Origin: Candidatus Marinacidobacterales bacterium
GTDB taxonomy: Bacteria > Acidobacteriota > Vicinamibacteria > Marinacidobacterales > DATDRI01
Direction: 5' to 3'
DNA length: 64,000 nt
Assembly: GCA_965226495.1 (NCBI GenBank)
Contig: OZ245365.1
Location: 1,248,001 to 1,312,000 of the forward strand
Positions 5,270-53,560 of the stretch are shown one piece after another. Position numbers and translations under genes: made by a program. The notes beneath the pieces were generated by a model. The model was not told where the DNA came from, did no database searches, and saw nothing but the letters and a program-made list of their open reading frames with translations. How positions within the stretch are numbered: the stretch's first letter is position 1; each line of letters opens with the position of its first letter.

Positions 5270-5432
5270 CACCCGTTGGAGGAAGAATGATGAAGACCAT
5301 CCTCACGGAGCAAGCGACAATGTATACGTCCTCAAGGTCACCGCCACATTCATCAGGCCGATTCGTCTGAAACAAACACTAGTGGAGGAACCCTTAATCG
5401 AAGTGCAGCATCGAGGAGCTTGGAGAACAGTC

Positions 5433-37568: not shown

Positions 37569-38063
37569 ATGCTGCTATCCGATACTCTGACCGCAGAGTT
37601 TGCCTTCGAGTCTGAAACGACGAAGAAGCTGATGGACCGGCTTCCCGAAGACAAGCTCTCTTGGACGCCCCACCAGAAGTCGATGACGCTCAGTCGGCTC
37701 GCGACCCACATTGCTCAGATCCCCGAATGGGGGGAGACCATCGTGCAGCACGAGAGCTTCGACATGGCCAGCGTCGATTACAAACCCCTCGAGCTCGGGA
37801 GTCGACAAGAGGTTTTAGATCTTCTCCAGAAGAACCTGGCGCAGTTTGCGGAGATCGTGAAGGGGAAGGACGACTCGTTGATGCTCGCGAAGTGGCAGCT
37901 CAAGCACGGCGACCATGTTGCCGTCGACGTACCGCGCATCGCGGCGCTTCGAGGTTTCGTTCTGAACCACACCATCCACCATCGCGGACAGCTATCGGTT
38001 TACCTCCGCCTGAACGACGTCCCCCTTCCTGCCATGTACGGGCCTTCCGCCGACGAATCCTAA
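37569..38063 (+). CDS. DinB/YfiT family protein
   Basis: WTPHQKSMTLSRLATHIA and NHTIHHRGQLSVYLR...P.MYGPSAD. Confidence 0.92.
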   Translation: MLLSDTLTAEFAFESETTKKLMDRLPEDKLSWTPHQKSMTLSRLATHIAQIPEWGETIVQHESFDMASVDYKPLELGSRQEVLDLLQKNLAQFAEIVKGKDDSLMLAKWQLKHGDHVAVDVPRIAALRGFVLNHTIHHRGQLSVYLRLNDVPLPAMYGPSADES

Positions 38064-39277
38064 TTCATGGGCGGTCCGACTGCGACAATAGGCTCGTTAG
38101 GCCGGAAATGCAGAGGGAACTTGGTCACCGGTCGCATGGGGTCCTTCAAGTCCACCAAGTAAGGAGCACGGTCCTTCTCTTTGACATCCCCGAGTTCGAA
38201 AACCACGGTGGAGGCGGCTAGGGCGGAGCCATCGGGTGAGGCCGCAATTCGCGTGCCATAAGGATGAGGCCAATCATCGAACTTCCCCGACATCCGCGCG
38301 ACCGTGGTAAGCCGTGGTGGGGCAGTGCCCATCGGTATTTCGGCGATAGAGAACATCATCCTGTCCCCTCGGAAGATCCAGAAGCCCGAAGATTTGGCGG
38401 GACTGAATACCGCCGCATAGAGGGTCTCGCCATCCGGCGACCAATCGAGATGTCCCAATACGTACTGTTCGACAGGGAGCTTCGGCACCAAGGTCTCTTG
38501 GAGTCCGGCCTCTGAGAAGATAAGGATGAGCGCCCCTGTCGGCCCGCCGCCGGCGACGGCCATTCGCTCCCCATTTCGATAGGGCGCCATGAAAGGGGAG
38601 AGCTCGTCGATCCCATGTTCCTCTAGTTCTCTCTTGGTCAGCTCGAAGAGTGGCAAGAGAGTGAGGTCCTCCAAATTCAGTTTTCCGAATTCTTCAGCCC
38701 GGAATACGCGTTTGCTCTTTGGATCGCTCGTCGGCTCGAATCGTGTTGCCCGGTAATAGACGGTGTCGCCAGCGTCGTAAAGCATGACGGTTTCCTCGGT
38801 TTCGCCGGACGTCACTTCGCCAGTGCGGAGATCGACTTTGTTCAGCGTTTCGCCGCCGAAGTAAAGGCTCCCTGCGATTTCCGGAATCGGTGATGCCGTT
38901 GCTATCGTAGCCGCGCCGCGCGGGAGCTCGATCCTCTCGCGCGGTTCAGGAGAGTTGAGAGGTAGTAGTAGTATCCCGCTCGTTGACAACACGATCACCC
39001 GCTCGCCGCCCGCCTCCCATTGTGCATCGATGACGCCCGCATCTTCGTCGGGTTCGGACACTAGAAAGATAGAACGCGTCGCTCCGCTGGCGCGATCCAA
39101 CAGCACGACACCAGACTCCTTCGCCGTCGGGTCGTAATAGGAGTAGAGCAGCTTAGAGCCGTCGGGACTCCACGAGGGTCGGGAGGGTAGGCAAGCGGAA
39201 ACGCACAGAATAAGTGCCAGAAGACTGACCACCGTGAATAATTCATTGCGATTTCCAATCTGATTGAGTCTTTCCAT
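38060..39277 (-). CDS. Lipoprotein with TolB-like beta-propeller
   Basis: AGGAGG RBS, lipobox VSAC, WSPDG twice and ASPDG. Confidence 0.75.
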   Translation of the reverse strand: MERLNQIGNRNELFTVVSLLALILCVSACLPSRPSWSPDGSKLLYSYYDPTAKESGVVLLDRASGATRSIFLVSEPDEDAGVIDAQWEAGGERVIVLSTSGILLLPLNSPEPRERIELPRGAATIATASPIPEIAGSLYFGGETLNKVDLRTGEVTSGETEETVMLYDAGDTVYYRATRFEPTSDPKSKRVFRAEEFGKLNLEDLTLLPLFELTKRELEEHGIDELSPFMAPYRNGERMAVAGGGPTGALILIFSEAGLQETLVPKLPVEQYVLGHLDWSPDGETLYAAVFSPAKSSGFWIFRGDRMMFSIAEIPMGTAPPRLTTVARMSGKFDDWPHPYGTRIAASPDGSALAASTVVFELGDVKEKDRAPYLVDLKDPMRPVTKFPLHFRPNEPIVAVGPPMN

Positions 39278-39307
39278 CTTCTTCGCCTCCTCTAGACGGG
39301 AAGAAGA

Positions 39308-39322
39308 GCAAGGACGGTGCCA
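39308..39322 (-). promoter_or_regulatory. sigma54 promoter P1 (drives 39277 lipoprotein)
   Basis: TGGCAC-CGTCC-TTGC on the minus strand, matching the -24/-12 consensus. Confidence 0.85.
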
Positions 39323-39376
39323 ACGCGCAGAGACTCATCGGTGGCAACATACCGTGGACAGAACGCCTCGTATCGC

Positions 39377-39408
39377 TTCGGATATCGAAACGGTGTTCGT
39401 GTATCGAA
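39377..39408. promoter_or_regulatory. Tandem upstream activator palindromes for P1
   Basis: TTCG gatat CGAA acggtg TTCG tgtat CGAA, 54 bp from P1. Confidence 0.8.
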
Positions 39409-39589
39409 ACACGCCCTAGCCTCACCAGCTCGCTAAGTCCTTGCTTCTAAACTGTCGATTCTGTTGAACTGTGTTTCCGCGACGGCATGAATCTGGCAGT
39501 TCACCAAGCAGGTTCCACCATGGCGTACGAGGCTTCACACCGCTTCACTCGGTGGTTTTCTGGCTGTAACATAGCTGCAGAGGTACCTC

Positions 39590-41167
39590 GTGGACGATTG
39601 GTCCCCTGAGACAACGCTCGATCCGAACAGCCCGCTGTCAGAGACTGGGACAGGACCGTCGCATCGACTTCTTGCTATCTACGAAGTAGGCCGATTGCTG
39701 TTGGAGCAGCGCGAGCCGCGCCAAATCATACTGACGATTCACAAAGCCCTCGTCGACCACCTCAAGCCCGATCATGCGTGCGTCCTGAGCGTCGGCGGGA
39801 ACGGCTCTCTGCACGCGGTGACGGCGCACGACCTGGATCTCGACAAACCCGAGGACGCCTGGCCTATCAGCCGGACCGCTTTGCGGCAAGCTCAAGAGAC
39901 GGGCCTCGCGCTTCTTGCGAAAGACGTTCTGCAAGATCCACAGTTCGGCGGCTCTCAGAGCGTCCACAAGTTCAGTATTGGGTCGGTCCTGTGTGTTCCG
40001 CTGGGAAAGGACCCGGTGCGCGGTCTGATTTATGCCGACCGCCGCAACAAGCGCGATGCGTTCACCCGGGAAGACCTCGAGTTTCTCACCGCCATCTCGG
40101 TCTACACCGGCCTAGTGCTGGAGCGCGCCGAGGAGTATCTCCGAACTTCGGAGGCGCTCAAACGTAGGGACGAACGGCTGGAGCTACTCGAAAGGGAGAT
40201 TCTCCGTTATGAGATCGTGGGAAAGTCGCCTCGCCTACTAGAGTCGTATGACCACTTGCGTCGATTAGCAGGGGCCGGCGCGCGGGTTCTGCTTAGGGGA
40301 GAAACAGGCACTGGCAAGGAGCTCTTCGCCCGTGCCTACGCCGCCGCCACCGAGCGAGGGAAGCCTTACGTGCCAGTTCCCATCCCGGCCCTTGCCCCTA
40401 ATCTCGTCGAGTCGGAGCTCTTCGGGCACGTAAAAGGGGCTTTCACTGAGGCCTCTCGCGACAAAAAAGGTTATCTCGAGGTCGCGCACGGCGGGGTCTT
40501 GTTTTTGGACGAGATCGGCGATATCGAACCGGCGACCCAGGTGAAACTGCTTCGCTTTCTGGACTCCGGGGAGCTTCACCGGGTCGGAGACACCGACCCA
40601 CGACACGTCGACACGCTCGTTGTCTCGGCTACGAATCGCAATTTGGAAAAGCTCGTAGAAGAAGGACGTTTTCGTTCCGATCTCCTGGCGCGCCTGGGAC
40701 ACCCGATCGAGATCCCACCTTTGCGCGAGCGCACCGGGGACATCCCGATTTTGGTGAACCACTTCAATGAAGTTTACTGCCGGGGACCGAAGCGGAAGAC
40801 CTTTGCGCCGGAGAGTATGGAGCTGATGAAGCGTTACCCCTGGGAGTTCAACGTACGCCAGCTTCAGCAGGTCGTGGAGCATGTGGTGTGTCTCGTCGAT
40901 CGCGAGACCATACTCCCCGAAGACTTGCCCGATTTCGTCCGCCTCGGCGCGGAACTGCCAGGGCCCACCTCGGGTGGGCTCGGGAGCGGAGATCGCGGCT
41001 CTCGGCCCTTGAAAGACGTCATCGACGAGGCGGAACGCGCGCATATCACACAGACCCTCGAGCTCACCGGCGGCAATAAACGCAAAGCGATCAAGCTCCT
41101 CGGCATATCCTCGGAAACCTTTTATAATAGGCTCGAGGAGTTCGGCCTTCACAAGAAAAAGTCCTAA
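39590..41167 (+). CDS. sigma54-dependent enhancer-binding protein, GAF-AAA+-Fis HTH
   Basis: GAF region (ISRT...SVLCVPL...GLIYAD...FTREDLEFL), GETGTGKE, ESELFGHVKGAFTEA, LFLDEIG, SATNRNL and C-terminal HTH GGNKRKAIKLLGIS. Confidence 0.93.
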   Translation: MDDWSPETTLDPNSPLSETGTGPSHRLLAIYEVGRLLLEQREPRQIILTIHKALVDHLKPDHACVLSVGGNGSLHAVTAHDLDLDKPEDAWPISRTALRQAQETGLALLAKDVLQDPQFGGSQSVHKFSIGSVLCVPLGKDPVRGLIYADRRNKRDAFTREDLEFLTAISVYTGLVLERAEEYLRTSEALKRRDERLELLEREILRYEIVGKSPRLLESYDHLRRLAGAGARVLLRGETGTGKELFARAYAAATERGKPYVPVPIPALAPNLVESELFGHVKGAFTEASRDKKGYLEVAHGGVLFLDEIGDIEPATQVKLLRFLDSGELHRVGDTDPRHVDTLVVSATNRNLEKLVEEGRFRSDLLARLGHPIEIPPLRERTGDIPILVNHFNEVYCRGPKRKTFAPESMELMKRYPWEFNVRQLQQVVEHVVCLVDRETILPEDLPDFVRLGAELPGPTSGGLGSGDRGSRPLKDVIDEAERAHITQTLELTGGNKRKAIKLLGISSETFYNRLEEFGLHKKKS

Positions 41168-42297
41168 CGCGGAACCGAGAGCCGCATCCGCGCGATGCCC
41201 CCAGCATGATCTGATGGCCATCGGCCCGATGACGTAAGATCCCTCACCTCCTCGCCCACCACGACTGCCTGGATGGGGCCGATTGGCGGACCATGTCCGT
41301 TGGCGGTGTTTCGGGCCCAAATCAGATCGATCCGCCGATTCAGTTGCGGCTCCGGATTGTCGAGTAGCTCGGCGTGACAACAGGTGTCGCCTGGCCTGGC
41401 CCGCCCTCTTTTCGCCGCCCATGCGTCGACGTAGCCCGCCCAGGCGAACTGCAGGTAAGGTGGCACGATGTCGTCGACAACCGGATCGTCTGGATCCGAG
41501 TTGAAGTCCCCGACGACGATCACTGGGTCGTCCGCTGCCGCCAGGATGCCGAGGAGTTCCTGCGCCTGTAGCGCCTGAAAAGCGAGGGCCGGTCCCTGAA
41601 AATCCACCTCCAAATGCGTGTTGACGAAGTGGTATTTCCGTCCACGAACCCACGCGTCGACCGACGTGAAACCCCGCAGGAACTCGAGCTCGGCTCCGGC
41701 TATGGAGACGGGAACGTTGAAAGTGTAGTTTTGCGACATGGCGTTCGCAGTCCCGACGTCTCCGCGAACGAGGATCACGTCCCGATCGGTCACTCGCCCA
41801 TCGAAGAACAGCGGAATCCCATTCGAATCGAATCCATCAAACCCAGGCAGCTCAACATCGACATTCTGAACGAGTGACGCGACGCGGTAATCCAAACCCC
41901 GACGGTCGAGAGCCGCGAGCAGGAGATCCAGATAGTCGAATTCAACATCCACCGCAGGGGTGGCGTTCAAATCACCCGGAAACTGCGTCCGGATCAAGAA
42001 GGCCTCCTGAAGTCCGATGAGCTCGGGCCTTTTTCTCGCGATCTCGTCCGCAATGGCCTCCATCCGCTCGGGTGGATTGCTCTGGCGTATGATTTTGAGG
42101 ATTTCGGCGACTTTAATAGAGAGATCGAACGGTGACTGCGCTTCCAGAACGCGGAAGACGTCGGCCCCAAAGTAGAGGTTGCGCGTCATCACTTTGACGC
42201 TTCCAGAACGGCGGTTCACGCCGTCGTGCCCCAGAACGAGCGGCGTCGTCAGAAGTACGAGAACAAAGGACATCCAGCGAGTCATTCTCCGTGTCAT
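41164..42297 (-). CDS. Secreted endonuclease/exonuclease/phosphatase (EEP) family hydrolase
   Basis: AAGGAG RBS, signal peptide, MTRNLY, GLQE, NTHLE, GDFNS, RIDLI and SDH. Confidence 0.9.
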   Translation of the reverse strand: MTRRMTRWMSFVLVLLTTPLVLGHDGVNRRSGSVKVMTRNLYFGADVFRVLEAQSPFDLSIKVAEILKIIRQSNPPERMEAIADEIARKRPELIGLQEAFLIRTQFPGDLNATPAVDVEFDYLDLLLAALDRRGLDYRVASLVQNVDVELPGFDGFDSNGIPLFFDGRVTDRDVILVRGDVGTANAMSQNYTFNVPVSIAGAELEFLRGFTSVDAWVRGRKYHFVNTHLEVDFQGPALAFQALQAQELLGILAAADDPVIVVGDFNSDPDDPVVDDIVPPYLQFAWAGYVDAWAAKRGRARPGDTCCHAELLDNPEPQLNRRIDLIWARNTANGHGPPIGPIQAVVVGEEVRDLTSSGRWPSDHAGGIARMRLSVPR

Positions 42298-42433
42298 TCG
42301 ATAGCTCCTTTCGCGCAGGTAGGGCATGGAGTCGAAGAATCCGTGACATCCACGGCTGTGGATTGGCAGCTGTCTCGACCCGCTAGGGGCATCCTTCGAC
42401 TCCATGCCTTTCTTTCCTGGCGTGCTAGGTACA

Positions 42434-42448
42434 GCAAATGCGATGCCA
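42434..42448 (-). promoter_or_regulatory. sigma54 promoter P2 (drives EEP hydrolase)
   Basis: TGGCAT-CGCAT-TTGC on the minus strand. Confidence 0.85.
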
Positions 42449-42502
42449 ACAGGGAGGCGTGAACCAGGCAGTGTTTATGCGCAGCTAGTGATACGGGAGT
42501 AG

Positions 42503-42533
42503 TTCAGATTTCGAACGCGTTTCGATTTACGGA
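42503..42533. promoter_or_regulatory. Tandem upstream activator palindromes for P2
   Basis: Minus strand TCCG taaat CGAA acgcg TTCG aaatc TGAA, 54 bp from P2. Confidence 0.72.
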
Positions 42534-42549
42534 GAGGTTCTACGCGGTC

Positions 42550-44697
42550 TCAAAAACGGAAGCGCAACTTTCCTACGATGAGCCTAGTGAGGATGTCGCC
42601 AAAGACGTGTTGTTGGATCTCTGAATTCATCAGATTGGTGATCTCTATGATGGTGCTCAGCTTCCCGTCCTCCCACCGGATTCCGAATCCGGCGTTGACG
42701 AGCGTGTAGGCGTCGCTAGGCCCGTGAAAGCGAGCGTCCAAGACGTCCTGCCAAAACGACCAAAACGCATCGTCGGCGAAGTTCACCGATACGTTGCCGA
42801 AGTATCGGCCATAGTTAAAGCTGAAGCCAGCGTTGAAACGGTGCGTCGGTGGCAGGTTGAGCTCGCTGAGATCGAATCCCGTCGGCTCCGGCTCGTCTTG
42901 CCACGAATAGTTCGCAAAAACGCCGAAGAATGGGTTGATGCTCGTATCAACGGAAAGCTCTATCCCCTTGTCCCGAACGCGCTCAAGATTCCGAAACGAG
43001 AGCTCGGCGGGAAGCCCCAAGCCGGCCCGGTCTAGCTCGTCCAAAACGCTCGGTGGCAGCGGCCAACCTGGGGGTGGGTTCGTGCTGTCGTAGGTGTCGG
43101 TTTGAGTGAATTGGATGATGTCGTCGATTTCGTTGATATAGAAGGCCGCGCTGACGATGGTGCGGCCCTCGATGACCCCGGTGTAACCGAGCTCATAAGA
43201 GGTAAGGGATTCCTCTCGTAGCGCTGCGTTTCCGACGGCGGCAACGGGAAAAACGAACGGATCCCCGGGGAGCGATGGGACGATCGATTCGAGGTCTACC
43301 GCGTCTAAGATGACCGTATCCAGAAAGTTGTTCACCAAGGATGGTGCGCGGAAGGCGCGGTTGAAGGAGATACGGAACGTTTGGTCCGGGTTGGGTTTCA
43401 CCATGAAACTGGTTCGTGGTGAAAAAACAACGTCTTCCAATACATCGAACTTATCGATACGTCCGCCCACCACCCAGCGAAAATGCTCGGAGAGGAAGAT
43501 CTCGTCTTGGATATAGAGCCCAACCTCGTCGCGGTTGTCCCTAACGGGTGCCAGGGAGATATCGAACCTGTTGTGACGCACGTTCCCCCCGTATGACAGC
43601 AAATGCTTGCCTCCGATTACATTCAAGTTTCCGAGCTCGATGTCGTAGGTCTGGTTCTTGAAAGTGAAATTGATGGGTTGGCCATCGGCGCCGATGGCAA
43701 GAAGCGCAGGTGCCTCGCTATCGGTGATGTTGGTGAAAAATCTCAGACTGAAATCGCCGCGCTGATACCGGACCGTTCCGTAGGCGAGAAAAGTCTCTGG
43801 CTTGATCGCGAAGGGACCGAGGCCGGAGTGAACGATTCCTCCGGTGCCCGCGTAGCCGCCCGCGAAGACGAACTTTTGCGGCCGGCTCAGATCTTGCCGA
43901 TCGCTAGGAAAGTCGTAATCGAAACGGACATCGAACTGGGGCTGCCTTGTCCCCTGGTTAGCGTACGGCGGATAGGGGGTTTGGAATTCGTTGGGAATCG
44001 TGCCGGTGGGGCGAGGGAGGGCGTGCTGGGCGTAGATCCCAGCCGAGATCTTGAATGCGAGCCGCTCGCTGACTGCCTGTCCATAGGTGCCATTCAAGGC
44101 GAACAGATTTCCGCTATCCTGCTCGTTCCCTTCGACAGAACGGTCGAACCCTCCGAAGTCGATCGCCAGGGTAGTACCCAACATTTCTCGAGGAGGCTTG
44201 GTGATGACGTTGACGACGCCAGTCATTGCGTTGGCTCCCCAAACTGCGGAAGCAGGCCCGCGGATGATTTCAATCTGTTTGATCTCGTCGGTGTTGATGG
44301 GAAGCAGGTCCCAGAAAACGAAACCAAAGAAATCCTGGTAGATGGTTCGTCCGTCGAGCAAGGCGAGCTGCGATGTGACGAGGGTCGAGGTCGAGGCGCG
44401 GCTCCTGAGATTGATGTCGCGAGCCGACATCTGAATCACGTTGAGGCCGGGGACGACGCGCAGGAGATCGCCGTAGTTTTGCGCCGGAGAGCTCTCAATG
44501 ACACGATAAGGCAAGACGCTCACGGTGGCGGGCGCATTGACGAGCTCCTCCTGAAGCTTGGAGACGCTCACCACGATCACTTCCTGGTAGGGGGGAAGGT
44601 CCTCCTTATCCTGTTCCTGGTCTTGTCCGTCCTCAGTGAGCGGAAAAGGAAGCGACAGGAAGGTGGCGAGCAGGGGGGTTACACACCAGACCAACAT
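42550..44697 (-). CDS. TonB-dependent receptor
   Basis: Signal peptide, TonB box EVIVVS, plug motif IEIIRGPASAVWGANAMTGVVNVITK, RAFRAPS and terminal F. Confidence 0.93.
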   Translation of the reverse strand: MLVWCVTPLLATFLSLPFPLTEDGQDQEQDKEDLPPYQEVIVVSVSKLQEELVNAPATVSVLPYRVIESSPAQNYGDLLRVVPGLNVIQMSARDINLRSRASTSTLVTSQLALLDGRTIYQDFFGFVFWDLLPINTDEIKQIEIIRGPASAVWGANAMTGVVNVITKPPREMLGTTLAIDFGGFDRSVEGNEQDSGNLFALNGTYGQAVSERLAFKISAGIYAQHALPRPTGTIPNEFQTPYPPYANQGTRQPQFDVRFDYDFPSDRQDLSRPQKFVFAGGYAGTGGIVHSGLGPFAIKPETFLAYGTVRYQRGDFSLRFFTNITDSEAPALLAIGADGQPINFTFKNQTYDIELGNLNVIGGKHLLSYGGNVRHNRFDISLAPVRDNRDEVGLYIQDEIFLSEHFRWVVGGRIDKFDVLEDVVFSPRTSFMVKPNPDQTFRISFNRAFRAPSLVNNFLDTVILDAVDLESIVPSLPGDPFVFPVAAVGNAALREESLTSYELGYTGVIEGRTIVSAAFYINEIDDIIQFTQTDTYDSTNPPPGWPLPPSVLDELDRAGLGLPAELSFRNLERVRDKGIELSVDTSINPFFGVFANYSWQDEPEPTGFDLSELNLPPTHRFNAGFSFNYGRYFGNVSVNFADDAFWSFWQDVLDARFHGPSDAYTLVNAGFGIRWEDGKLSTIIEITNLMNSEIQQHVFGDILTRLIVGKLRFRF

Positions 44698-44833
44698 AGG
44701 CAGTTTTCGTTGCTACGGAAGCTACTCGGTCCCGGCCTCGGAGTCAATCCGGTGAAAAGGGAGAGTTTCCCGTCTGATAAGACGGTCGCTGCGCAACGCA
44801 AGACGCCGCAGCAGACCGCGGGGAAGGCCGTTT

Positions 44834-44862
44834 TTGACACCACGAAACGTCCCTACTATTCT
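44834..44862 (+). promoter_or_regulatory. Putative sigma70 promoter of the kinase-TonB gene
   Basis: TTGACA-17 nt-TATTCT, about 60 bp upstream of ATG 44925. Confidence 0.65.
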
Positions 44863-44924
44863 CTAAGGTGGGCGGCACCTTGCACCCCAGTTAACATTCC
44901 AACCTCTGCCTTCTGGGAGATTTG

Positions 44925-46607
44925 ATGTCCGGCAATGAGGAGCTTGCACTCGGCGACATCCTCGATGGCAAGTACATCATCGAGGAGCTCATCGGTCGGG
45001 GAGGTATGGGCGCTGTTTATCGTGCCCGGCACGTGGAGCTCGGTTCGCCGCGAGCCATCAAGATCATGCGCCGAGAGCTCGCCCAAGACGCTTCCTTCGT
45101 CCGGCGCTTTCGGAACGAGCCGCTCCTTGCCGAGGGAGTGCGACACCCGAACGTCGTGTCGGTCTACGACTTTTCTACTCTTGACGACGGCACCTCCTAC
45201 ATCGTCTGGGAGTACGTCGAGGGAAACACACTAGCGCAGCTTCTCACCAAGGGAAACGTCTTCACCAGTTCCGAAGTAGTGAATTTCGTCGAACAGGTGG
45301 CCGACGGACTGTCGGCAGTGCACGAAAAGGGCATCCTTCATCGAGACGTGTCGCCGGACAACATCATGATCTGCACCGATGCTAGAGGTAGCAGCAACGT
45401 CAAGCTTCTCGACTTCGGAGTGGCCAAAGGCGGAGGGATCCCTGGAGAAACTCCAGCCGATGCCAGCATGTTATTTGGCAAGATCGGCTATGCCTCCCCG
45501 GAGCAGATGGGTCTTCTCCAAGACGACGAGCTCCTCGACGGTCGTACCGACGTCTTCTCACTTGCCGCCGTCGCATATACGATGCTCACGGGTGAATCGC
45601 CGTTTCGCACCGCGAGTTTGCAAGTCTTCGTCCACGATCTGATCATCGCTCCAGAGTCAGAGATCAAGGCCCGTTATCTCGAGAGTTTGCCCGAACCCTG
45701 GCGGGCGCCGCTCTCACGAGCCTTGGCCCGCGACCGTGAGGCGCGACCAGCGACCACCAACGCGTTCGCCGAGGAGATAAAGAAGGCGGCGAAGGCAATG
45801 GGCTCGGAGGGGAGTAGCATCCAGCAACCGGAAGCGGGAGCACCGCGATGGCGGGGTGTGCTCTTCGCGTCGGCCGTTGCCGCAGCCATAGTCGCGATTG
45901 CGGTCGCGGTGACGACGACGACGCGCGACGTGATCCGAACTCCTGTGAAGATCGGTGAGCCTTCCGCAAAGGGGCGACAGGCTTTTCCTGACGAGACTGT
46001 TGGTCTCGCGGAGCCAGCCATCGCCGAGTTGCCACAGAGGGAAGAGGTTGCGACCGAACTCGCTCCGGAGCCTTCGCGTTCGGTTGTCGCGCCGATCGAG
46101 ACAGAGCCCTCCCGGGAAAGAGAGGACGCGCAAGCCGGCCCGGTGCAAATCGCTGTACCAATGGAGGACGAGAGAAACCGGGTAGAAGAAGCTGGAGTGG
46201 ACTCCACTCCCGGCGAGCCGCCCGCCGCGGAGCCGAAGCATCCCAACCCGATCGATGACAAGATGGCCGAGGGCCCGAGCGAGCGTCCTCAACCCCCCGC
46301 TCCGGCACCGCCGGGGCCGCAACCGAAGACGGCGACAACCGTGATACAGCCACGGCTTGTATTCCAGAAGGAGCCGGTCTACACAGACATGGCGAAGAGG
46401 CTCAGAATCCAGGGCGACGTCATCTTGAAGGCCATGATCACTTCACAGGGGAACGTCACGGATATCGAGGTCGTCCGTTCCCTTCCTCACCTGGATGGGG
46501 CGGCGATCGAGGCGGCTCGCCAATGGAAGTACGAGCCCGCCCTGAGGGACGGCGTCGCCGTGCCGTACAAGATGGATCTGAAGGTAACGTTCCGCTTCAC
46601 GCCCTGA
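44925..46607 (+). CDS. Ser/Thr kinase - TM - Pro/Glu-rich linker - TonB C-terminal domain fusion
   Basis: IGRGGMGAVY, AIK, HRDVSPDN, DFG and YASPEQ. One TM (VLFASAVAAAIVAIAVAV), a Pro-rich linker, then EPVYTDMAKRLRIQGDVIL...G.V.DIEVV...AAIEAARQWKYEPA. Confidence 0.92.
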   Translation: MSGNEELALGDILDGKYIIEELIGRGGMGAVYRARHVELGSPRAIKIMRRELAQDASFVRRFRNEPLLAEGVRHPNVVSVYDFSTLDDGTSYIVWEYVEGNTLAQLLTKGNVFTSSEVVNFVEQVADGLSAVHEKGILHRDVSPDNIMICTDARGSSNVKLLDFGVAKGGGIPGETPADASMLFGKIGYASPEQMGLLQDDELLDGRTDVFSLAAVAYTMLTGESPFRTASLQVFVHDLIIAPESEIKARYLESLPEPWRAPLSRALARDREARPATTNAFAEEIKKAAKAMGSEGSSIQQPEAGAPRWRGVLFASAVAAAIVAIAVAVTTTTRDVIRTPVKIGEPSAKGRQAFPDETVGLAEPAIAELPQREEVATELAPEPSRSVVAPIETEPSREREDAQAGPVQIAVPMEDERNRVEEAGVDSTPGEPPAAEPKHPNPIDDKMAEGPSERPQPPAPAPPGPQPKTATTVIQPRLVFQKEPVYTDMAKRLRIQGDVILKAMITSQGNVTDIEVVRSLPHLDGAAIEAARQWKYEPALRDGVAVPYKMDLKVTFRFTP

Positions 46608-46628
46608 CATCCTCTTTACCAAGAATAC

Positions 46629-46659
46629 CTCGAGAATCGAAACCCGTTCGGAGTTCGAA
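46629..46659. promoter_or_regulatory. Tandem upstream activator palindromes for P3
   Basis: CTCG agaat CGAA acccg TTCG gagtt CGAA, 53 bp from P3. Confidence 0.8.
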
Positions 46660-46712
46660 ACGCATTTGTCCCACGAGCATTCCGAAGAGCCTTCTTTTTC
46701 GGCCTTTTCGAT

Positions 46713-46727
46713 TGGCATCGAACTTGC
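46713..46727 (+). promoter_or_regulatory. sigma54 promoter P3 (drives small membrane protein)
   Basis: TGGCAT-CGAAC-TTGC. Confidence 0.85.
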
Positions 46728-46742
46728 TCTTCGAGTCGATCC

Positions 46743-47015
46743 ATGAACGCACAGAACGTCTCCGTTGAAGTCACACGTCCCCGAGACCGACGTGGATTCT
46801 TGAACGCGAGGATGGTCCGAGGGCTTTCGTTCTTCACGGCGAGCATGTGCATTCTAGTTGCGGTGGTGGCGAGCCTTCTCGCCATATGGAAGTTCACAGG
46901 AACGGACGTGCTTTGGCGGACGGTAGCGACCTGCGCGGTGGTCGCGGGTGGCGCCATGACGTTTTCGTGGATTAATATTATCTTCGGGGATAATCCAACC
47001 GCCGATCCTTCCTAA
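46743..47015 (+). CDS. Small two-TM membrane protein of unknown function
   Basis: 90 aa with two hydrophobic segments separated by WKFTGTDVLWR. Lies directly after P3. Confidence 0.65.
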   Translation: MNAQNVSVEVTRPRDRRGFLNARMVRGLSFFTASMCILVAVVASLLAIWKFTGTDVLWRTVATCAVVAGGAMTFSWINIIFGDNPTADPS

Positions 47016-47022
47016 CTTAGGT

Positions 47023-47053
47023 TTCGAAAATCGGAAACCGTTCGGAACTCGAA
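47023..47053. promoter_or_regulatory. Tandem upstream activator palindromes for P4
   Basis: TTCG aaaat CGGA aaccg TTCG gaact CGAA, 54 bp from P4. Confidence 0.8.
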
Positions 47054-47107
47054 ACGCGTTTCTGTCCGCTAGATGGGCTAACCGCCCTCTTTCTCAGCTT
47101 TCTAGAG

Positions 47108-47122
47108 TGGCATCGAACTTGC
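47108..47122 (+). promoter_or_regulatory. sigma54 promoter P4 (drives TRAP-T operon)
   Basis: TGGCAT-CGAAC-TTGC, identical to P3. Confidence 0.85.
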
Positions 47123-47169
47123 TAACTCGAGTCGTAGCCGCCCGCACAAGGCTGCAAAGGAGGGTTCCA

Positions 47170-48222
47170 ATGGCTTACGTGTTTCATTGCCGATCACTCC
47201 GCATCCTTTTGGTCTCCCTAGTTCTCATGGTCGCTGCCACCGGCTGCTCCATGAAGAAGTACGCGATCAACAAGGTCGGTGACAGTCTCGCTTCCGGCGG
47301 CTCGGTTTACGAGAGCGACGACGACCTCGAGCTGGTTGGTGACGCGTTCCCGTTCTCACTCAAGCTGGTGGAGAGCCTGCTGGCGGAGTCGCCGCGTCAT
47401 CGGGGATTGCTGCTCGCCGCTTCCAAAGGGTTTACATCCTACTCCTACATCTTCGTGCATGGCGAAGCCGATGTCGTCGCCGTGGAGGATCTAGCCAGGG
47501 CCACGGAGCTTCGCGCGCGGGCCCGAAATCTTTATCTACGAGCTTATCGCTACGGAATTCGTGGCCTCGAGCTTTCCTACCCGGGTATCGGTTTCGCACT
47601 CACGTCGGATCCCGAACTGCCGCCGGAGCCCTTCGTCGCGCGCGCGATGCGGGACCTTGAGCTTTCGGAGCTAGAAATCGATCAACTCCCTATTTTCCTC
47701 GATCCCGAACAGGCGGTCTCTCGCATCACCGATAAGAAGAACGTGCCCCTGCTCTATTGGACGGGGGCGGCGCTGGGGTTGGCGATCTCTGTCTCCCGCA
47801 ACGATCCCGCGATGCTTGCGCGCTTGCCTGAGGTCGACGCCCTCGTCGGACAGGCGATGCGGCTAGACGAGAGTTGGGACGAGGGAGCGCTCCACGAGTT
47901 CGAAGTGATCTTCGCACGCGCTAGGCCCGGGGCGTTGGATTTCGAAGGGATGGACGTCCACTTCCGCCGCGCCCTCGAGCTATCGAACGGGGCGCGCGCG
48001 GGCCTTTTCGTTTCTTACGCGGAGGCCGTGGCCATACCCAACCAGGATCGCTCTCAGTTCGAGACGCTTCTCGAAAGCGCATTCGCTATCGATCCCGACA
48101 AGCACAAGGACAATCGCTTAGTAAACCTCGTCGCTCAGCGACGAGCGCGCTGGCTGCTATCAAGGGTCGACGATCTGATTCTTCCCGTCGAATCGATGGG
48201 GTCGGAAGGAGAGAGCCAATGA
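47170..48222 (+). CDS. tatT: TRAP transporter TatT component lipoprotein
   Basis: AAGGAGG RBS, lipobox ATGC, DDLELVGDAFPFSLKLVESLL, RARNLYLRA, VPLLYW and NLVAQRRARWLL. Adjacent to dctP and dctQM. Confidence 0.88.
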   Translation: MAYVFHCRSLRILLVSLVLMVAATGCSMKKYAINKVGDSLASGGSVYESDDDLELVGDAFPFSLKLVESLLAESPRHRGLLLAASKGFTSYSYIFVHGEADVVAVEDLARATELRARARNLYLRAYRYGIRGLELSYPGIGFALTSDPELPPEPFVARAMRDLELSELEIDQLPIFLDPEQAVSRITDKKNVPLLYWTGAALGLAISVSRNDPAMLARLPEVDALVGQAMRLDESWDEGALHEFEVIFARARPGALDFEGMDVHFRRALELSNGARAGLFVSYAEAVAIPNQDRSQFETLLESAFAIDPDKHKDNRLVNLVAQRRARWLLSRVDDLILPVESMGSEGESQ

Positions 48223-49283
48223 GGTACTCCATGTATGCGGTTCGAGCACTGGTTTGTCTAGTCCTACTTGGGTCGGCCCGGCCGGCTCTTTCCCAAAAAA
48301 TACGTATCAATTTGGGGACGGTGGCACCCGAGGGATCGATCTGGCACGAGATCCTTCTCGACGTGCGCCAGCAATGGGAGCAAATCTCCGGAGGCGAAGT
48401 CACGCTCCGTATCTATCCTAGCGGCATTCAGGGTGACGAAAGCGAGATGCTTCGAAAGGTTCGTATCGGCCAGCTCCACGCGGTCGCACTTTCTGGTGCG
48501 GGGCTTTCTCGCATCGACTCGAGTGTCTCTTGCCTTCAGGTCCCAATGCTCATCGAAACCTACGAAGAGCTCGACTACGTGGTCGAACGAGTGACGCCCA
48601 CGCTGGAAACGAAGCTTGCCGAGAAAGGCTTCGTCGTTTTGCATTGGGGCGACGTTGGGTGGGTGCACTTTTTCACCAAGAAGCCGGCGAGGACGCTCGA
48701 CGACATCCGTGAGATGAAGCTCTTCACCTCTGCCGGTGATCCGGAGACAGAGAAGCTCTACAAGGAGTTCGGCTTCCGACCGATTCCGCTCGCCCTGACC
48801 GATCTTCTCCCAGCGCTGCAAACCGGCATGATCGACGCAATAGACGTGCCTCCGCTGTTCGCGCTGCTCCAGCAGACGTTCGCTCTTGCGAGCCACATGA
48901 CGCCGGTGAAATGGGCTCCGCTGACCGCGGCGACCGTGATAAGCGAGAGGGCGTGGCAGGGAATACCGGCCGCGTGGCGTGAAGAGATGATCCTGGCTGC
49001 GCGCGCCGCCGCCGAGAAACGGCGCGACGAGATTCGGCGAATGGGTGAACGTGCCATCGACGAGATGCAAAGGAGGGGTTTGAAGGTCGTCGAGCTCGAT
49101 GAGGCGGCGCTCGTTTCCTGGCATCGGGAAGCCGAGCAGGCTTATCCCCGTCTCCGCGGAACGATGGTTCCGGAAGACCTCTTCGACCAAGTGACGCGCC
49201 TCAGCAGTGAGTTCAAAAAACGGCGGGGGACGGCCGATCAGGTCAACGGAGTGGAACGCGATCCGGCGCGTACGCGGCCATGA
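48219..49283 (+). CDS. dctP: TRAP substrate-binding protein DctP (TatP-type)
   Basis: LGTVAPEGSIW, GIQGDESEMLRKVRIGQL, WGDVGWVHFF and ALQTGMIDA. Confidence 0.92.
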   Translation: MRYSMYAVRALVCLVLLGSARPALSQKIRINLGTVAPEGSIWHEILLDVRQQWEQISGGEVTLRIYPSGIQGDESEMLRKVRIGQLHAVALSGAGLSRIDSSVSCLQVPMLIETYEELDYVVERVTPTLETKLAEKGFVVLHWGDVGWVHFFTKKPARTLDDIREMKLFTSAGDPETEKLYKEFGFRPIPLALTDLLPALQTGMIDAIDVPPLFALLQQTFALASHMTPVKWAPLTAATVISERAWQGIPAAWREEMILAARAAAEKRRDEIRRMGERAIDEMQRRGLKVVELDEAALVSWHREAEQAYPRLRGTMVPEDLFDQVTRLSSEFKKRRGTADQVNGVERDPARTRP

Positions 49284-51127
49284 GTGGTGTGCAAGCTACC
49301 GTAGTCCCTATCTGCGGGGAAACGACGTTACCGAAAGTACGCGCTTTCCGAATCGAAGACTCTCTATCGATCGGCGTACTGGCTCTGATGGTATTGATTC
49401 CCCTCATTGAGGTGGCGGGTCGTGAGCTCGCGGGGAGAGGTTTGCCGGGAGCCATCCCGATTGTCCAGCATCTGACGCTTTGGATTGCGTTTCTAGGAGC
49501 GGGGCTTGCGGCCCGCTCCGATCGGCTCCTCGCTCTTTCGACGGCGGACGTCCTCCCCCAACGCTGGCGCCGGCCGGTTCGGATCTTTACTTCGGCGGTC
49601 GGTGTCGCGGTGTCGGCGTCTCTTCTCTTGGCAAGCCTCGATCTCATTCGGGTCGAGCTGGCGGCGGGTGAGAGGGTAGCGTTCGGAGTACCGGTATGGT
49701 TCGCACTCGCCGTCATGCCCATCGGCTTCGCCTTGATCGCGGGCCGATTGATCTGGCACGCGTCCGATCGTGCATGGGGAAGAGTCCTGGTCGCGTCGGG
49801 GCTCTTGGTTCCCGCCGTCCTCGGGCAGTTTGCGGGTCTACAGGACGCGGGGCTGCTCGGTCCCGGAGTCTTGCTTCTACTCGTCGCGACGGCCCTGGGG
49901 CTTCCTATCTTTGCGGTTCTCGGAGGCGCGGCACTGCTCTTGTTTTGGACATCGGGAATTCCTGTGGCTGCGGTCCCGGTCGAGACCTATCGTTTGACCG
50001 CGCAGCCCATGTTGCCTGCGATTCCTCTATTTACGCTCGCGGGCTACTTACTCGCGGAGGGAGGTGCGAGTCGCCGGCTGCTTCGCAGTTTTACCGCCAT
50101 CGTCGGTTGGATGCCGGGAGGCCTCGCCATCGTGACCACTTTGGTTCTCGCATTCTTCACGCCTCTCACCGGTGCATCGGGGGTCACCATTCTTTCGATG
50201 GGAGGTCTCCTGCTGCCGATGCTAGTGAAGGCCCGGTATCCGGAGAAATCCTCGGTGGGTTTGGTTACGGTTTCTGGATCGATTGGTCTCCTCTTTGCAC
50301 CGAGTCTGCCCGTCATCCTATACGGCGTTTACTCGAATACGCCGATCGACGAGCTATTCATCGGTGGGTTGATGCCCGGGCTGTTGCTCGTGGTGCTGAT
50401 TGCTGGATGGGGTGCGAGCCGCGGCTTCCTTGCCGGGGCCCAACGGAGCTCCTTCGATAAACGCGAAGCTCTCGCGGCCCTGTGGGAGGCAAAGTGGGAG
50501 TTCCTTCTTCCTGTCGTCATCCTCGTGGGCATCTTCGGTGGGTTCGCTACGATTGTAGAAGCAGCCGCCCTTACCGTGCTCTACGCCTTCGTTGTGGAGT
50601 GCGTCGTCTACAAAGACATCCGGATCGGGCGCGATCTCGCTTCGATAGCCGTAGAGAGCGCTACCCTCGTTGGCGGGTTCCTCATCATTCTGGGTACGGC
50701 ACTCGGCTTCACCAACTATCTGATTCACGCCGAAGTACCGATCCGCGCGCTCCATTGGGTACAGACTTACATCGAATCACCGCTCGTCTTCTTGTTGACG
50801 CTCAACGTGTTTCTGCTCATCGTCGGAGCGCTGATGGACATCTATTCGGCGATCTTCGTTATTGTTCCGCTCATCGCTCCGATGGGGATCGCTTACGGCA
50901 TTCACCCGGTGCATCTCGGTATCGTCTTCCTCGCCAACATGGAGCTGGGCTACTTGATGCCGCCCATGGGAGAGAACCTGTTTCTTTCCTCTTATCGGTT
51001 CAAGCAGTCGCTCACTCGGGTCTATCTATCTACAGGCCCGTATGTTCTCATTTTGCTGGCGGCGGTCTTGCTGATTACTTATGTTCCCGCTTTCACCTTG
51101 TGGCCGCTCGAGCTGCTCGGACGGTGA
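49280..51127 (+). CDS. dctM: TRAP transporter fused DctQ-DctM permease
   Basis: N-terminal 4-TM DctQ part, then AIPLFTLAG, TGASGVTI, GSIGLLFAPSLP and ELGYLMPPMG.NLF. Confidence 0.92.
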   Translation: MSGVQATVVPICGETTLPKVRAFRIEDSLSIGVLALMVLIPLIEVAGRELAGRGLPGAIPIVQHLTLWIAFLGAGLAARSDRLLALSTADVLPQRWRRPVRIFTSAVGVAVSASLLLASLDLIRVELAAGERVAFGVPVWFALAVMPIGFALIAGRLIWHASDRAWGRVLVASGLLVPAVLGQFAGLQDAGLLGPGVLLLLVATALGLPIFAVLGGAALLLFWTSGIPVAAVPVETYRLTAQPMLPAIPLFTLAGYLLAEGGASRRLLRSFTAIVGWMPGGLAIVTTLVLAFFTPLTGASGVTILSMGGLLLPMLVKARYPEKSSVGLVTVSGSIGLLFAPSLPVILYGVYSNTPIDELFIGGLMPGLLLVVLIAGWGASRGFLAGAQRSSFDKREALAALWEAKWEFLLPVVILVGIFGGFATIVEAAALTVLYAFVVECVVYKDIRIGRDLASIAVESATLVGGFLIILGTALGFTNYLIHAEVPIRALHWVQTYIESPLVFLLTLNVFLLIVGALMDIYSAIFVIVPLIAPMGIAYGIHPVHLGIVFLANMELGYLMPPMGENLFLSSYRFKQSLTRVYLSTGPYVLILLAAVLLITYVPAFTLWPLELLGR

Positions 51128-51736: not shown

Positions 51737-53560
51737 CTATGTCGTGGGCTTCTGGTTGTACCAGAACACCAAAATGAACTCGAAGACGTCGTCCGGGTAG
51801 TCGTCCGGTAAAGCAGCGAGAGCCGCCTGACGAAGAGCCCGCGCCGCCGCTTCGTCTAGTGTCGAGTTATTGGAGCCCTTCTTGACTCGAACCTCAAGGA
51901 TCTGTCCGCGGCGGTTGATCGAAGCTTCGACCGAGGCGTGGCCTACAGTGTGCGTATCCGAACCGGGAACCTTCCACCGCCGTTGCACTTCTGTGACCAT
52001 TTGGTGGACCCAGGGTTGGAGGTCGGCCCCCTTAGCATCGTAGTAGATGCTGTTGGACAGACGAACCGCTGGCCCGTAGGCGTTGAGATCTGTAAGGAAC
52101 GCCTTCGCCATCTGGCGTTCCGCGGCCGCCGTCGCGACGGTCACGACGCGCTCACCGATTTCCCGCGCTTCGTCCACGCGGTTCAATCGCAACAAGAGCT
52201 CACCAGTGTTGACTAAATAGATCACGTTCTGCGGTTCGAGCTCCACCGATCGTTGAGCGATACCGATAGCCTCTTCCAAATTTTCCCCTCGACGCACGTA
52301 CTCGTACGCGAGCTGGCCGTACCCCGGTCCAAATAAGGGATTGATGTCGATGGCCCGCTTCAAGGAGCTTTCGGCTCTTGCCCACGCGTCCGTATCTTCT
52401 ACGTTCTCCGTTGCGAGTACAGCGTAGTAGTAATGAGAAATATAGCTCCCGGTACCCAACGCCACTGCGTCCTCGAACCAGCGTTTGGCGAGCTCCCGTT
52501 TGTCGCGCCGGAACTCCAAATAACCCATGCTCTCATGCGCCAGGGCATTTTTCGGATCCAGCCGCAGGGCCTCTTCCAGAAGGGCTTGGGCTTCATACGG
52601 GCGGTTGCTGGCCACCAAGAAGCTTCCCCGCACCGCAGCAGAATCCGCTGGTGAAAGCTCTCTCGCGGAGTATGCCTTGTCGTCGATCTCTGCCGGGGCA
52701 TCCATTCGAGGGCCCCGCCCCATCTTGCTCGAGCTCACGTAACCCTCGAGTTTTTCTTGGAGCTCGTCGAGATCGCCGAAGGATCGTCTAGCCGCCTCGA
52801 CCGAATCCACGTCTGCCTGCACCAGTCGTAGGTACGCGGACAAGGCGGGCCTGGTCCTCGCGTTCTCGTCGCCGAGCAAGAGATAGTGGATGAGTGCCCC
52901 TGATTGCGCGTAGAAGATGGAGACCCTATCGGGATCGGTGTCGTGTGGGTTCTCCTTCATCCCGATGAGCTCCTCGAGCGGCAGCATTCTGTTGCGTTCG
53001 AAGATCTTTCGGCCGATGGGGATGCCCATATCGACGGTCTTGCCCTGAATCCGCGTGCGTTCCCAGACCTCGGCCAATCCTTCGTTCATCCACATCGGGA
53101 TTTTCTCCTCGTTCAAACTCGCGAGGAGATGAAAGTATTCGTGGTAGATCAGTCGGTAGCGTTCGTTGGCTCGTCCATCCAACCGAAGCACGACGAAGTG
53201 TTTATCGAAGCCTCTTTGGAAGACTCCAGCCGGCCGCTGGCCTTTCCGTTCCCAGTATTGGGGAAGGAGTTCTTTCAGTCCATCCTGGTCTTTGGTGGCA
53301 AGGACAACGATGGGGGAACCATCGTCCCTGGCTTTGGGAAGGGCAGTCAGGAAGACGGCACGAATCCGCTCGAGGTCGCCCGCGGTGCGGCGAGCCATTT
53401 TTTCGCCGGCGTTGCTGACAACGGTGAAGTGAGGGCTACGGACCTCGATCCAGGTATCTTGTTTGTCGGCTGCCCCGCCCGAGGGGTCGGGGACCGACAG
53501 TTCCAGCGTTACGGTCGCGAGGAGTGAGAAAAATAGCGCTCTCGCGGGGGTGGCTATCAT
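51737..53560 (-). CDS. Exported zincin-like (DUF1570-like, HEYFH) + TPR + TonB/TolA C-terminal domain protein
   Basis: WIEVRSPHF, IYHEYFH, WMNEGLAE, FYAQS.ALIHYL and TPRs. C-terminus VQRRWKVP...INRRGQI...GSNNSTLDEAAARAL. Confidence 0.8.
   Translation of the reverse strand: MIATPARALFFSLLATVTLELSVPDPSGGAADKQDTWIEVRSPHFTVVSNAGEKMARRTAGDLERIRAVFLTALPKARDDGSPIVVLATKDQDGLKELLPQYWERKGQRPAGVFQRGFDKHFVVLRLDGRANERYRLIYHEYFHLLASLNEEKIPMWMNEGLAEVWERTRIQGKTVDMGIPIGRKIFERNRMLPLEELIGMKENPHDTDPDRVSIFYAQSGALIHYLLLGDENARTRPALSAYLRLVQADVDSVEAARRSFGDLDELQEKLEGYVSSSKMGRGPRMDAPAEIDDKAYSARELSPADSAAVRGSFLVASNRPYEAQALLEEALRLDPKNALAHESMGYLEFRRDKRELAKRWFEDAVALGTGSYISHYYYAVLATENVEDTDAWARAESSLKRAIDINPLFGPGYGQLAYEYVRRGENLEEAIGIAQRSVELEPQNVIYLVNTGELLLRLNRVDEAREIGERVVTVATAAAERQMAKAFLTDLNAYGPAVRLSNSIYYDAKGADLQPWVHQMVTEVQRRWKVPGSDTHTVGHASVEASINRRGQILEVRVKKGSNNSTLDEAAARALRQAALAALPDDYPDDVFEFILVFWYNQKPTT

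Follow-up and report, generated by a model that had tools for sequence, protein, structure and literature searches.

Organization of the receptor–kinase–activator locus

The locus described here lies in a 64-kb stretch of an Acidobacteriota genome (Candidatus Marinacidobacterales bacterium, contig OZ245365.1, 1.248-1.312 Mb). The whole stretch is referred to below as the window, and coordinates are window positions unless given in Mb. Between positions 39590 and 46607, the window encodes a TonB-dependent receptor, a protein in which a Hanks-type Ser/Thr kinase is fused to a TonB C-terminal domain (TonB_C), and a sigma54-dependent transcriptional activator of the bacterial enhancer-binding protein class. 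Together these genes form a real, conserved, and unstudied module, in which the receptor and the TonB_C kinase probably work as a functional pair.

The receptor gene (42550..44697, minus strand) encodes 715 amino acids, with a Plug domain (PF07715) at residues 53-161 (57.6 bits, cut-off 23.9) and a TonB-dependent receptor barrel (PF00593, TonB_dep_Rec; 122.1 bits, cut-off 27). A TonB-box-like motif, EVIVVS, is located near the mature N-terminus at residues 39-44 (codons at 44566..44583, minus strand); this column block is conserved across 20 aligned relatives, with V43 being invariant. A domain scan of the receptor gave no match to the STN domain, the sole STN match of the genome being at 3.53 Mb. 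Only 10 Plug-domain matches occur in the 6.3-Mb genome, the receptor being one, which makes chance adjacency of receptor and kinase unlikely.

The kinase–TonB_C fusion gene (44922..46607, plus strand; 561 amino acids) is divergent from the receptor gene, with 224 nucleotides between them, and its likely start is the ATG at 44925. In a Pfam scan, the kinase domain (Pkinase, PF00069) spans residues 19-283 (4.4e-43, 148 bits) and TonB_C (PF03544) occupies residues 484-558 at the C-terminus (2.8e-20, 73 bits versus a cut-off of 24.6), the latter being matched as well by the NCBIfam model TIGR01352 (56.7 bits, cut-off 27.1). The two domains are joined by a single hydrophobic span (residues ~312-334) and a 148-residue linker (336-483) that is 18.2% Pro and 13.5% Glu. 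The kinase motifs K47, H140-R141-D142, D164-F165-G166, and P193-E194 show no variation across an alignment of 32 sequences, and S192 shows almost none. Among NCBIfam models, PknB_PASTA_kin fits the kinase part best, at 226 bits (under the cut-off of 450). The ~310 cytoplasmic residues form a kinase and not the short cytoplasmic N-terminus of TonB.

The TonB_C domain of the fusion looks genuine, because its scores clear the cut-offs, because the nearest solved structures are TonB C-domains (E-values of 5e-8 to 1e-6, including the receptor-complex chains 2gsk_B and 2grx_C), and because it aligns without gaps over 81 residues, at 48% identity, with the C-domain of the TonB that this genome encodes alongside exbB and two exbD genes at 4.78 Mb. 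The membrane span of the fusion is Ala/Val-rich, with no polar residue ahead of a closing Thr run, while that of the genome's own TonB contains Ser, Thr, and Gln. The missing TonB His in the fusion's span was considered as a further argument and dropped, since the genome's own TonB span also lacks it.

The genome has 105 Hanks kinase matches (two more kinases besides the fusion lie inside the window) and 18 TonB_C matches versus the 10 Plug matches. Three other fusions, with the order Pkinase, transmembrane span, two PEGA domains, and TonB_C, are encoded at 6.05, 0.68, and 3.73 Mb (loci L019, L020, and L021); one of the three genes precedes a gene for an FHA-RDD protein. A few kb from the locus, a 607-amino-acid TPR protein (51737-53560, minus strand) also ends in a TonB_2/TonB_C-like domain. 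In public databases, fusion-type proteins are named 'TonB family protein' or 'serine/threonine-protein kinase'. The source names attached to the nearest homologs put the organism in class Vicinamibacteria of the Acidobacteriota.

The activator gene (39590..41167, plus strand) encodes a 525-amino-acid protein composed of a GAF domain, a Sigma54_activat domain (PF00158, 180.6 bits), and an HTH_8 domain (PF02954, 36.4 bits), with a Walker-type GETGTGKE motif and a DEIG motif; no receiver domain is found. It falls under the cut-off of every named equivalog (nifA TIGR01817, 271.2 versus 528.85; NorR, 236.5 versus 476). Its sigma54-contact loop reads GAFTEA instead of GAFTGA (residues 283-288, window 40436-40453), and the same GAFTEA is present in 16 of 17 aligned relatives, with GSFTEA in the other one. 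Ahead of the GAF fold, a conserved tail motif, E-x-T-L-D-P, occupies residues 7-12 (window 39608-39625), of which T9 could be a phosphosite. The required sigma factor gene, rpoN, is located at 2.40 Mb.

These domain assignments uphold the initial annotation, made from the sequence alone, which had described a receptor that has a TonB box but lacks an STN extension, a divergent fusion of an intact Hanks kinase through one span and a Pro-rich linker to a TonB C-domain, and a receiver-less activator of the GAF type. Contigs from four public runs of four studies span the locus, and the kinase and activator genes show no insertion or deletion in them. Among 24 runs surveyed, no RNA run was listed as carrying the locus. 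In the receptor gene, the contigs of all four runs lack nine in-frame bases of the window (an extra WSF in the window, at 42751), and in one run a C6 homopolymer directly ahead of the TonB-box codons is longer by one base (window 44589).

Conservation of the receptor–kinase linkage

Relatives of the genome under study (G000) were compared using kinase orthologs, which are 43-61% identical in the kinase domain versus 30-42% for paralogs. Of the 55 genomes of the order, 6 have the TonB_C-type kinase, five copies being whole and one (G008) in two pieces, and these six genomes (G000, G010, G024, G030, G022, and G008) span four genera. Conserved co-localization had been set beforehand as a test of the proposed circuit, and the linkage holds. 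In all six genomes, the receptor gene is adjacent to, and divergent from, the TonB_C kinase gene, and in five of them a GAF activator is encoded within the same cluster. Two gene orders are observed: activator, EEP (endonuclease/exonuclease/phosphatase family protein), receptor, and kinase in G000 and G010; and a receptor divergent from a kinase and activator on one strand in G024, G030, and G022. In the last three genomes, as well as in G070, which has a related kinase lacking TonB_C, the activator gene comes immediately after the kinase gene and in the same orientation.

The linked receptors form an identity group of their own. They share 60-65% identity with one another, compared to 56-58% with a second group of receptors found elsewhere, in ten further genomes of the order and in other gene neighborhoods. 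At the four loci of this second group that were examined, three contain oxoacid:ferredoxin oxidoreductase genes, and two of these three also contain genes for an Mrp/ApbC-like NTPase and RelA/SpoT. The receptor is a specialized paralog of a widespread receptor.

A kinase match was present in at least 7 of 401 genomes of a class-wide sample, in which a stricter first look was used, and in 4 of 401 genomes of a phylum-wide sample, where the two matches outside the class are frames of ~1200 amino acids with 43-44% identity. A profile search of 1.84 billion representatives recovered seven sequences with kinase and TonB_C above 700 bits, five of them as one end-to-end stretch; among the best 150 of that search, a local hidden Markov model search found TonB_C in 8, the second stretches of the other hits being something else. 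With seven such representatives, the family of orthologous kinase–TonB_C proteins is small, a count that covers the orthologous family and not other kinase–TonB_C designs. Other searches were less informative. A metagenome scan using the 32-sequence kinase alignment, which carries generic kinase motifs, returned at least 79 loci, all at the paralog level (30-42% identity); a word-based search with the TonB_C region alone gave 5 hits and says nothing about the spread of kinase–TonB_C fusions; and a receptor-only scan of genome contigs gave 107 pattern matches, with none confirmed.

Orthologs of the GAF region of the activator (E-value of 4e-43 or better) are more widespread, with 34 loci distributed over 31 of the 401 genomes sampled from the class. 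A Hanks kinase domain is encoded within the fetched stretch (at most 19 kb) at 21 of these 34 loci, compared to an expectation of about 1 in 4, our own estimate from the 105 matches in 6.3 Mb; these counts include related genomes and are therefore not independent. In one activator family (f5), the recurring kinase belongs to a separate Pkinase-PEGA clade (10 rows, support 100) and is encoded ~2 kb from the activator gene, with two unnamed genes between.

Origin of the TonB_C sensor domain

In a FastTree phylogeny of 162 kinase domains (90 from the genome under study, 51 database homologs, and 21 from fetched loci), the TonB_C forms belong to a group of 20 rows (support 96), which is itself part of a clade of 52 rows (support 100). 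The same arrangement was obtained with IQ-TREE for 60 kinase domains, in which 18 TonB_C rows fall in one 20-row group (93 in the Shimodaira–Hasegawa-like approximate likelihood ratio test, SH-aLRT), again inside the 52-row clade (100). The remainder of this clade consists of PEGA forms, among which the TonB_C group is nested. One change between TonB_C and PEGA suffices on the tree, and none of 500 label shuffles needs as few, in a count that leaves out 19 rows with neither label.

Gene context was available for two clade members of the non-TonB_C type, G070 and G056. In G070, a PEGA kinase is encoded adjacent to the activator, and no receptor match was found in 16 kb; in G056, neither activator nor receptor was found in 14 kb. 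We interpret this to mean that PEGA may have been exchanged for TonB_C once, in a kinase whose pairing with this activator family was older than the exchange, with a receptor neighbor accompanying the swap.

Sigma54 promoters and the predicted local regulon

Strong sigma54 sites, defined as TGGCAC-N5-TTGCW with a match at 10 or more of 11 positions, number 156 in the genome, an average of 1.6 per 64 kb. Five of these 156 fall within ~9 kb (38243-47123), and four of the five stand 14-47 nucleotides before likely gene starts, with TCGAAAC-type repeats 50-90 nucleotides further upstream. The word TCGAAACGC has three exact copies in 64 kb, each upstream of a local sigma54 promoter. Among 1099 looser sigma54-like sites genome-wide, 40 have one heptad within 160 nucleotides upstream, which is about the background estimated from heptad density, and only four have two or more TCGAAAC heptads upstream, of which three are at this locus. 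The fourth (3.267 Mb) lies inside a 372-amino-acid open reading frame (ORF) and was set aside as probably due to chance.

Genes preceded by such promoters flank the receptor–kinase pair on both sides. To the left, a gene for a TolB/PD40-like beta-propeller protein (38060..39277, minus strand; a weak PD40 match, with atlas hits to TolB-family/PD40 clusters at 0.95) is preceded by a perfect 11/11 element, TGGCAC-N5-TTGCT (39307..39322, minus strand), and by a putative activator site with two TCGAAAC-type heptads 63-90 nucleotides upstream (39385..39412, no strand assigned). Its orthologs adjoin TAtT and an activator paralog in G008 and G022. Between the activator and receptor genes, the EEP family gene (41164..42405, minus strand; 413 amino acids) encodes an N-terminal hydrophobic segment, and the predicted product is called a secreted phosphoesterase here. 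The EEP gene has a TGGCAT-N5-TTGCT element (42433..42448, minus strand) and an upstream site consisting of TCGAAACGC followed by TCGAAAT, ~60-90 nucleotides upstream (42506..42525, minus strand); its ortholog holds the same position in G010, with an equivalent sigma54 site ahead.

To the right of the kinase gene, a small regulon member of 90 amino acids with two hydrophobic stretches, a predicted membrane protein (46743..47015, plus strand), is preceded by two TCGAAAC heptads (46637..46663, plus strand) and the element TGGCAT-N5-TTGCT (46713..46728, plus strand). It is followed by an operon for TAtT (a TPR protein) and the TRAP transporter components DctP, DctQ, and DctM (47171..51127, plus strand), for which the listed ORF start is 47107 and the likely ATG is at 47171, after GGAGG. 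The sigma54 element of this operon (47108..47123, plus strand) is letter-identical to the one at 46713, and its upstream site (47022..47057, plus strand) reads GTTTCGA ... TCGGAAAC ... TCGAAACGC. The two promoter regions (46689-46728 and 47084-47123) form a 40-nucleotide direct repeat with 83% identity, 395 nucleotides apart, and this repeat with identical -24/-12 elements suggests that the promoter was duplicated locally, with one copy before the small ORF and the other before TAtT. Orthologs of the 90-amino-acid protein are located beside the cluster in G010 and G030. In a genome-contig scan, its family has 57 loci (L145-L200), the majority from Acidobacteriota and a few from Verrucomicrobiota; only four of the 57 hold other cluster genes, and these are, by gene content, places already examined.

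The same design of a sigma54 promoter with upstream repeats precedes orthologous genes in G010, G022, G008, and G018, namely, the EEP gene (G010), the activator gene itself (G022), and the genes for PD40, TAtT, and the small membrane protein. Given this local clustering of sigma54 promoters with shared heptads, the regulon of the activator is most likely small and physically arranged around the receptor–kinase pair. The kinase gene is preceded by a sigma70-type promoter (TTGACA-17-TATTCT, 44834..44862, plus strand), which is the sole such match within 42300-47250 and is kept in all six genomes. A sigma54-like site directly upstream of the kinase start (8/11) was rejected as a promoter, because it is absent as a conserved site in the five other genomes. 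Another, within the first kinase codons and facing the receptor gene, occurs in G022 and G008 only, with no heptads upstream.

Among the 45 ORFs of the window that were scanned, there was no family match to an extracytoplasmic function (ECF) sigma factor, FecR, or ExbB/ExbD. In the rest of the genome, ExbB/ExbD matches are located at 2.35, 2.42, and 4.78 Mb, and FecR matches at 0.32, 1.63, 3.34, and 5.16 Mb. The view taken at the outset, of a pair situated inside a sigma54 regulon, with a kinase gene read from a sigma70-type promoter and with neither ECF/anti-sigma nor ExbBD genes nearby, therefore stands.

Two further features of the window deserve mention. The fifth strong sigma54-like site (38243-38258, minus strand; 10/11, perfect to TGGCAC-N5-TTGC) is located within the PD40-like ORF, in its 3′ portion, with no heptads upstream and no obvious downstream gene; transcription from it would run antisense into a convergent DinB-family gene. 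A DUF3604 gene (1562-3222, minus strand) appears to be broken into two ORFs, which cover profile positions 4-346 and 441-591, and has an intact paralog next to it at 5184-7325.

Proposed signaling route and its alternatives

The arrangement of these genes leads to a tentative proposal, held at somewhat below even confidence, that the locus is a trans-envelope sensing module feeding a small local sigma54 regulon. In other TonB-dependent receptors, ligand binding exposes the TonB box. By analogy, a ligand on this receptor would expose its TonB box, on which the TonB_C domain of the kinase would dock by strand addition, as TonB does. Docking would alter the clustering or conformation of the kinase and so increase its autophosphorylation, and the kinase would then phosphorylate the activator, with the conserved N-terminal Thr (T9 of T-L-D-P) as a candidate site. 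The activator would in turn switch on the periplasmic and inner-membrane uptake genes. The kinase gene would be constitutive, from its sigma70 promoter, and transport via the receptor would still be powered by the ordinary TonB-ExbB-ExbD system encoded elsewhere. The complete route from receptor through kinase to activator and the local sigma54 regulon is offered with similar caution, as possible but not yet the favored side of an even bet. The specific notion that the TonB box of the loaded receptor is itself the signal, with a TonB C-domain re-used as the sensor of a Ser/Thr kinase, no STN domain needed, and sigma54 transcription as the output through a phosphorylated, receiver-less GAF activator, is more speculative. 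Structure prediction for a complex of TonB_C (residues 468-561, 14 rows) with the receptor N-terminal region (residues 30-170, 19 rows) gave no usable answer (score of 0.01, mark of 0.32, controls not included) and so speaks neither for nor against docking.

Several observations weigh against the full route. Domain scans found neither an FHA nor a receiver domain on the activator, and its GAF domain, a type that usually senses ligands directly, is intact. Activator orthologs, found in 31 of the 401 class genomes, mostly occur without a TonB_C kinase, which is present in 6, and 13 of the 34 activator loci have no kinase of any type, though 6 of these 13 are contigs shorter than 10 kb. Two genes separate the kinase and activator genes in G000. 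In G018, the activator, DctP, and DctQM are kept and the kinase is absent, and all that remains of the receptor is its final 105 residues. Some copies of the module are damaged: the kinase and TonB_C parts are in different frames in G010, the receptor is in two ORFs in G022, and in G008 the kinase is split by a ~53-kb prophage and the receptor is again in two ORFs. Assembly errors may account for some of these breaks. On the input side, no sigma54 site is located ahead of the receptor gene in G000, so that a feedback loop of the Fec type is not evident, and none of the three Pkinase-PEGA-TonB_C proteins has a receptor among the 26 neighboring proteins scanned, so that TonB_C on a kinase need not imply a dedicated receptor.

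Two of these genomes show further detail. The receptor remnant of G018 (L109:8612-8917) abuts the activator gene, the gene for the small membrane protein has an in-frame stop, and the Dct sigma54 sites are kept. At the break in G008 (L026:9810-10427 and L027:9419-10534), an integrase gene lies beside the C-terminal piece, genes for a terminase, a DUF4055 portal-like protein, and a ParB-methylase are present, and kinase residues ~147-167 are found on both sides of the prophage.

The alternative that survives best, although it is considered unlikely, accepts the receptor and TonB_C kinase as a true sensing pair and removes the activator from the list of substrates. The activator would then sense a small molecule via its GAF domain, for example a compound imported by the receptor and the TRAP transporter, and the kinase would have other targets or would do no more than adjust the response. 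The frequency of activator orthologs that lack a TonB_C kinase, the retention of activator and TRAP genes in G018 after kinase loss, and the intact, conserved GAF domain all favor this explanation, as does the presence of ~100 Hanks kinases in the genome, such kinases typically having many substrates. It accounts less well for the activator gene directly following the kinase gene on the same strand in G024, G030, G022, and G070, for a kinase–activator pairing that outlasts the swap of the sensor domain, and for a conserved, Thr-bearing N-terminal tail outside the GAF fold.

The remaining alternatives question the receptor–kinase pair. TonB_C could be a general periplasmic or outer-membrane docking module of Acidobacteriota membrane kinases, binding any TonB box, peptidoglycan, or another partner, with the receptor as a neighbor only through a shared nutrient-uptake island. 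The three other kinase–TonB_C proteins with no receptor neighbor and the excess of TonB_C over Plug matches (18 versus 10) are in keeping with this explanation, which is nevertheless judged improbable, because the receptor stays adjacent and divergent in six of six genomes despite the rearrangement of other genes, because the TonB_C label and the receptor neighbor coincide on the kinase tree, and because the linked receptors cluster together by sequence identity.

A further explanation, more improbable still, is that the fusion is a dedicated TonB paralog of the neighboring receptor, as HasB is for HasR, which energizes or gates transport, the kinase regulating that process from inside the cell or signaling the condition of the Ton motor instead of ligand occupancy. 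The TonB layout of the fusion (membrane span, Pro-rich spacer, and TonB_C), its 48% identity to the C-domain of the genome's own TonB, and the existence of receptor-linked dedicated TonB paralogs (HasB; PMC3602595 and PMC9008036) all speak for it. It is opposed by the lack of exbB or exbD near the fusion gene and by the ~300-residue kinase in place of the short cytoplasmic end of TonB; the Ala/Val-rich span, free of polar residues before its Thr run and so unlike that of the genome's own TonB, is a weaker point on the same side. Finally, adjacency by chance of three functionally unrelated genes, for which the sheer number of Hanks kinases (105 matches, two more in the window) might be cited, is barely conceivable given only 10 Plug matches in 6.3 Mb and a linkage kept in six genomes of four genera in two gene orders, a synteny that nearly refutes it.

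Comparison with known systems

The predicted module resembles Fec signaling in outline and fails both of its defining features, the STN domain and the anti-sigma/ECF pair. The FecA-FecR-FecI route of cell-surface signaling by TonB-dependent transducers is reviewed in PMC9249621. Common to both designs are an outer-membrane TonB-dependent receptor, a single-pass inner-membrane protein that crosses the periplasm, and a presumed output in the transcription of uptake genes. In contrast to Fec systems, the receptor here has no STN domain, and no FecR-type anti-sigma or ECF sigma factor is encoded in the 64-kb window; the inner-membrane partner is a Hanks kinase with TonB_C, and the output is a sigma54 activator. 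The receptor gene of G000 also has no sigma54 promoter, whereas a feedback loop is typical of Fec systems.

A different comparison is with TonB itself and with HasB of Serratia marcescens, a dedicated TonB paralog (PMC3602595 and PMC9008036). The fusion is laid out like these proteins, from membrane anchor through Pro-rich spacer to TonB C-domain, and its gene is located beside one receptor gene, as with HasB. Unlike them, it bears a complete ~300-residue kinase with intact catalytic motifs on the cytoplasmic side, and its gene is not next to exbB/exbD. In layout only, the fusion also resembles the PASTA kinases PknB and Stk1, which have a cytoplasmic kinase, one span, and a sensor domain outside; its own sensor, however, is TonB_C on a long disordered tether in place of PASTA repeats, and what it is presumed to bind is a stretch of an outer-membrane receptor protein in place of a cell-wall fragment. 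The activator, in turn, has the GAF-AAA+-HTH layout of NifA and NorR, with sigma54 promoters and upstream sites nearby, and differs from them in scoring under the equivalog cut-offs, in its GAFTEA loop and T-L-D-P tail, and in the recurrent presence of a Hanks kinase in its neighborhood.

Another parallel is the PahS-PahP-PahK/PahR system of Cycloclasticus, which combines a periplasmic shuttle protein with a histidine kinase and a response regulator (PMC10570129). It too is a non-ECF route, by which information on a nutrient passes from an outer-membrane receptor through the periplasm to a kinase in the inner membrane (PMC10570129). In the present module, periplasmic reach and a Ser/Thr kinase are united in one polypeptide with TonB_C as the contact domain, whereas Pah has a separate shuttle (PMC10570129).

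The initial annotation had stated that no characterized circuit of this kind was known, and a literature search, with subscription journals outside its coverage, likewise found no paper on a kinase–TonB_C protein or on such a circuit. Passages of 10.1101/2022.03.11.484041 that came up for TonB and Pkinase concern other matters. Within the literature so covered, the module is classed as a previously undescribed form of cell-surface signaling.

Implications

To our knowledge, the sensing of outer-membrane receptor occupancy in Gram-negative bacteria has been detailed for essentially one design, built from an STN domain, an anti-sigma factor, and an ECF sigma factor. The present locus offers a compact case for studying another, with one receptor, one kinase, one activator, and four promoters that share a clear common upstream motif. 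It also comes with natural controls, namely, the PEGA-domain relatives that have no receptor and a lineage, G018, that has deleted the pair.

If the proposed route is true, it would join three systems that have been studied separately, TonB-dependent transport, Hanks-type kinases, and sigma54 activators, and it would provide a first concrete input for one of the orphan Ser/Thr kinases, ~100 in number, that an acidobacterial genome encodes. The role of sensor would then be open to any ordinary TonB-dependent receptor, with its exposed TonB box being read by a kinase. Should the TonB box prove to be the signal, the module would represent a third kind of trans-envelope signaling beside the anti-sigma/ECF and two-component routes.

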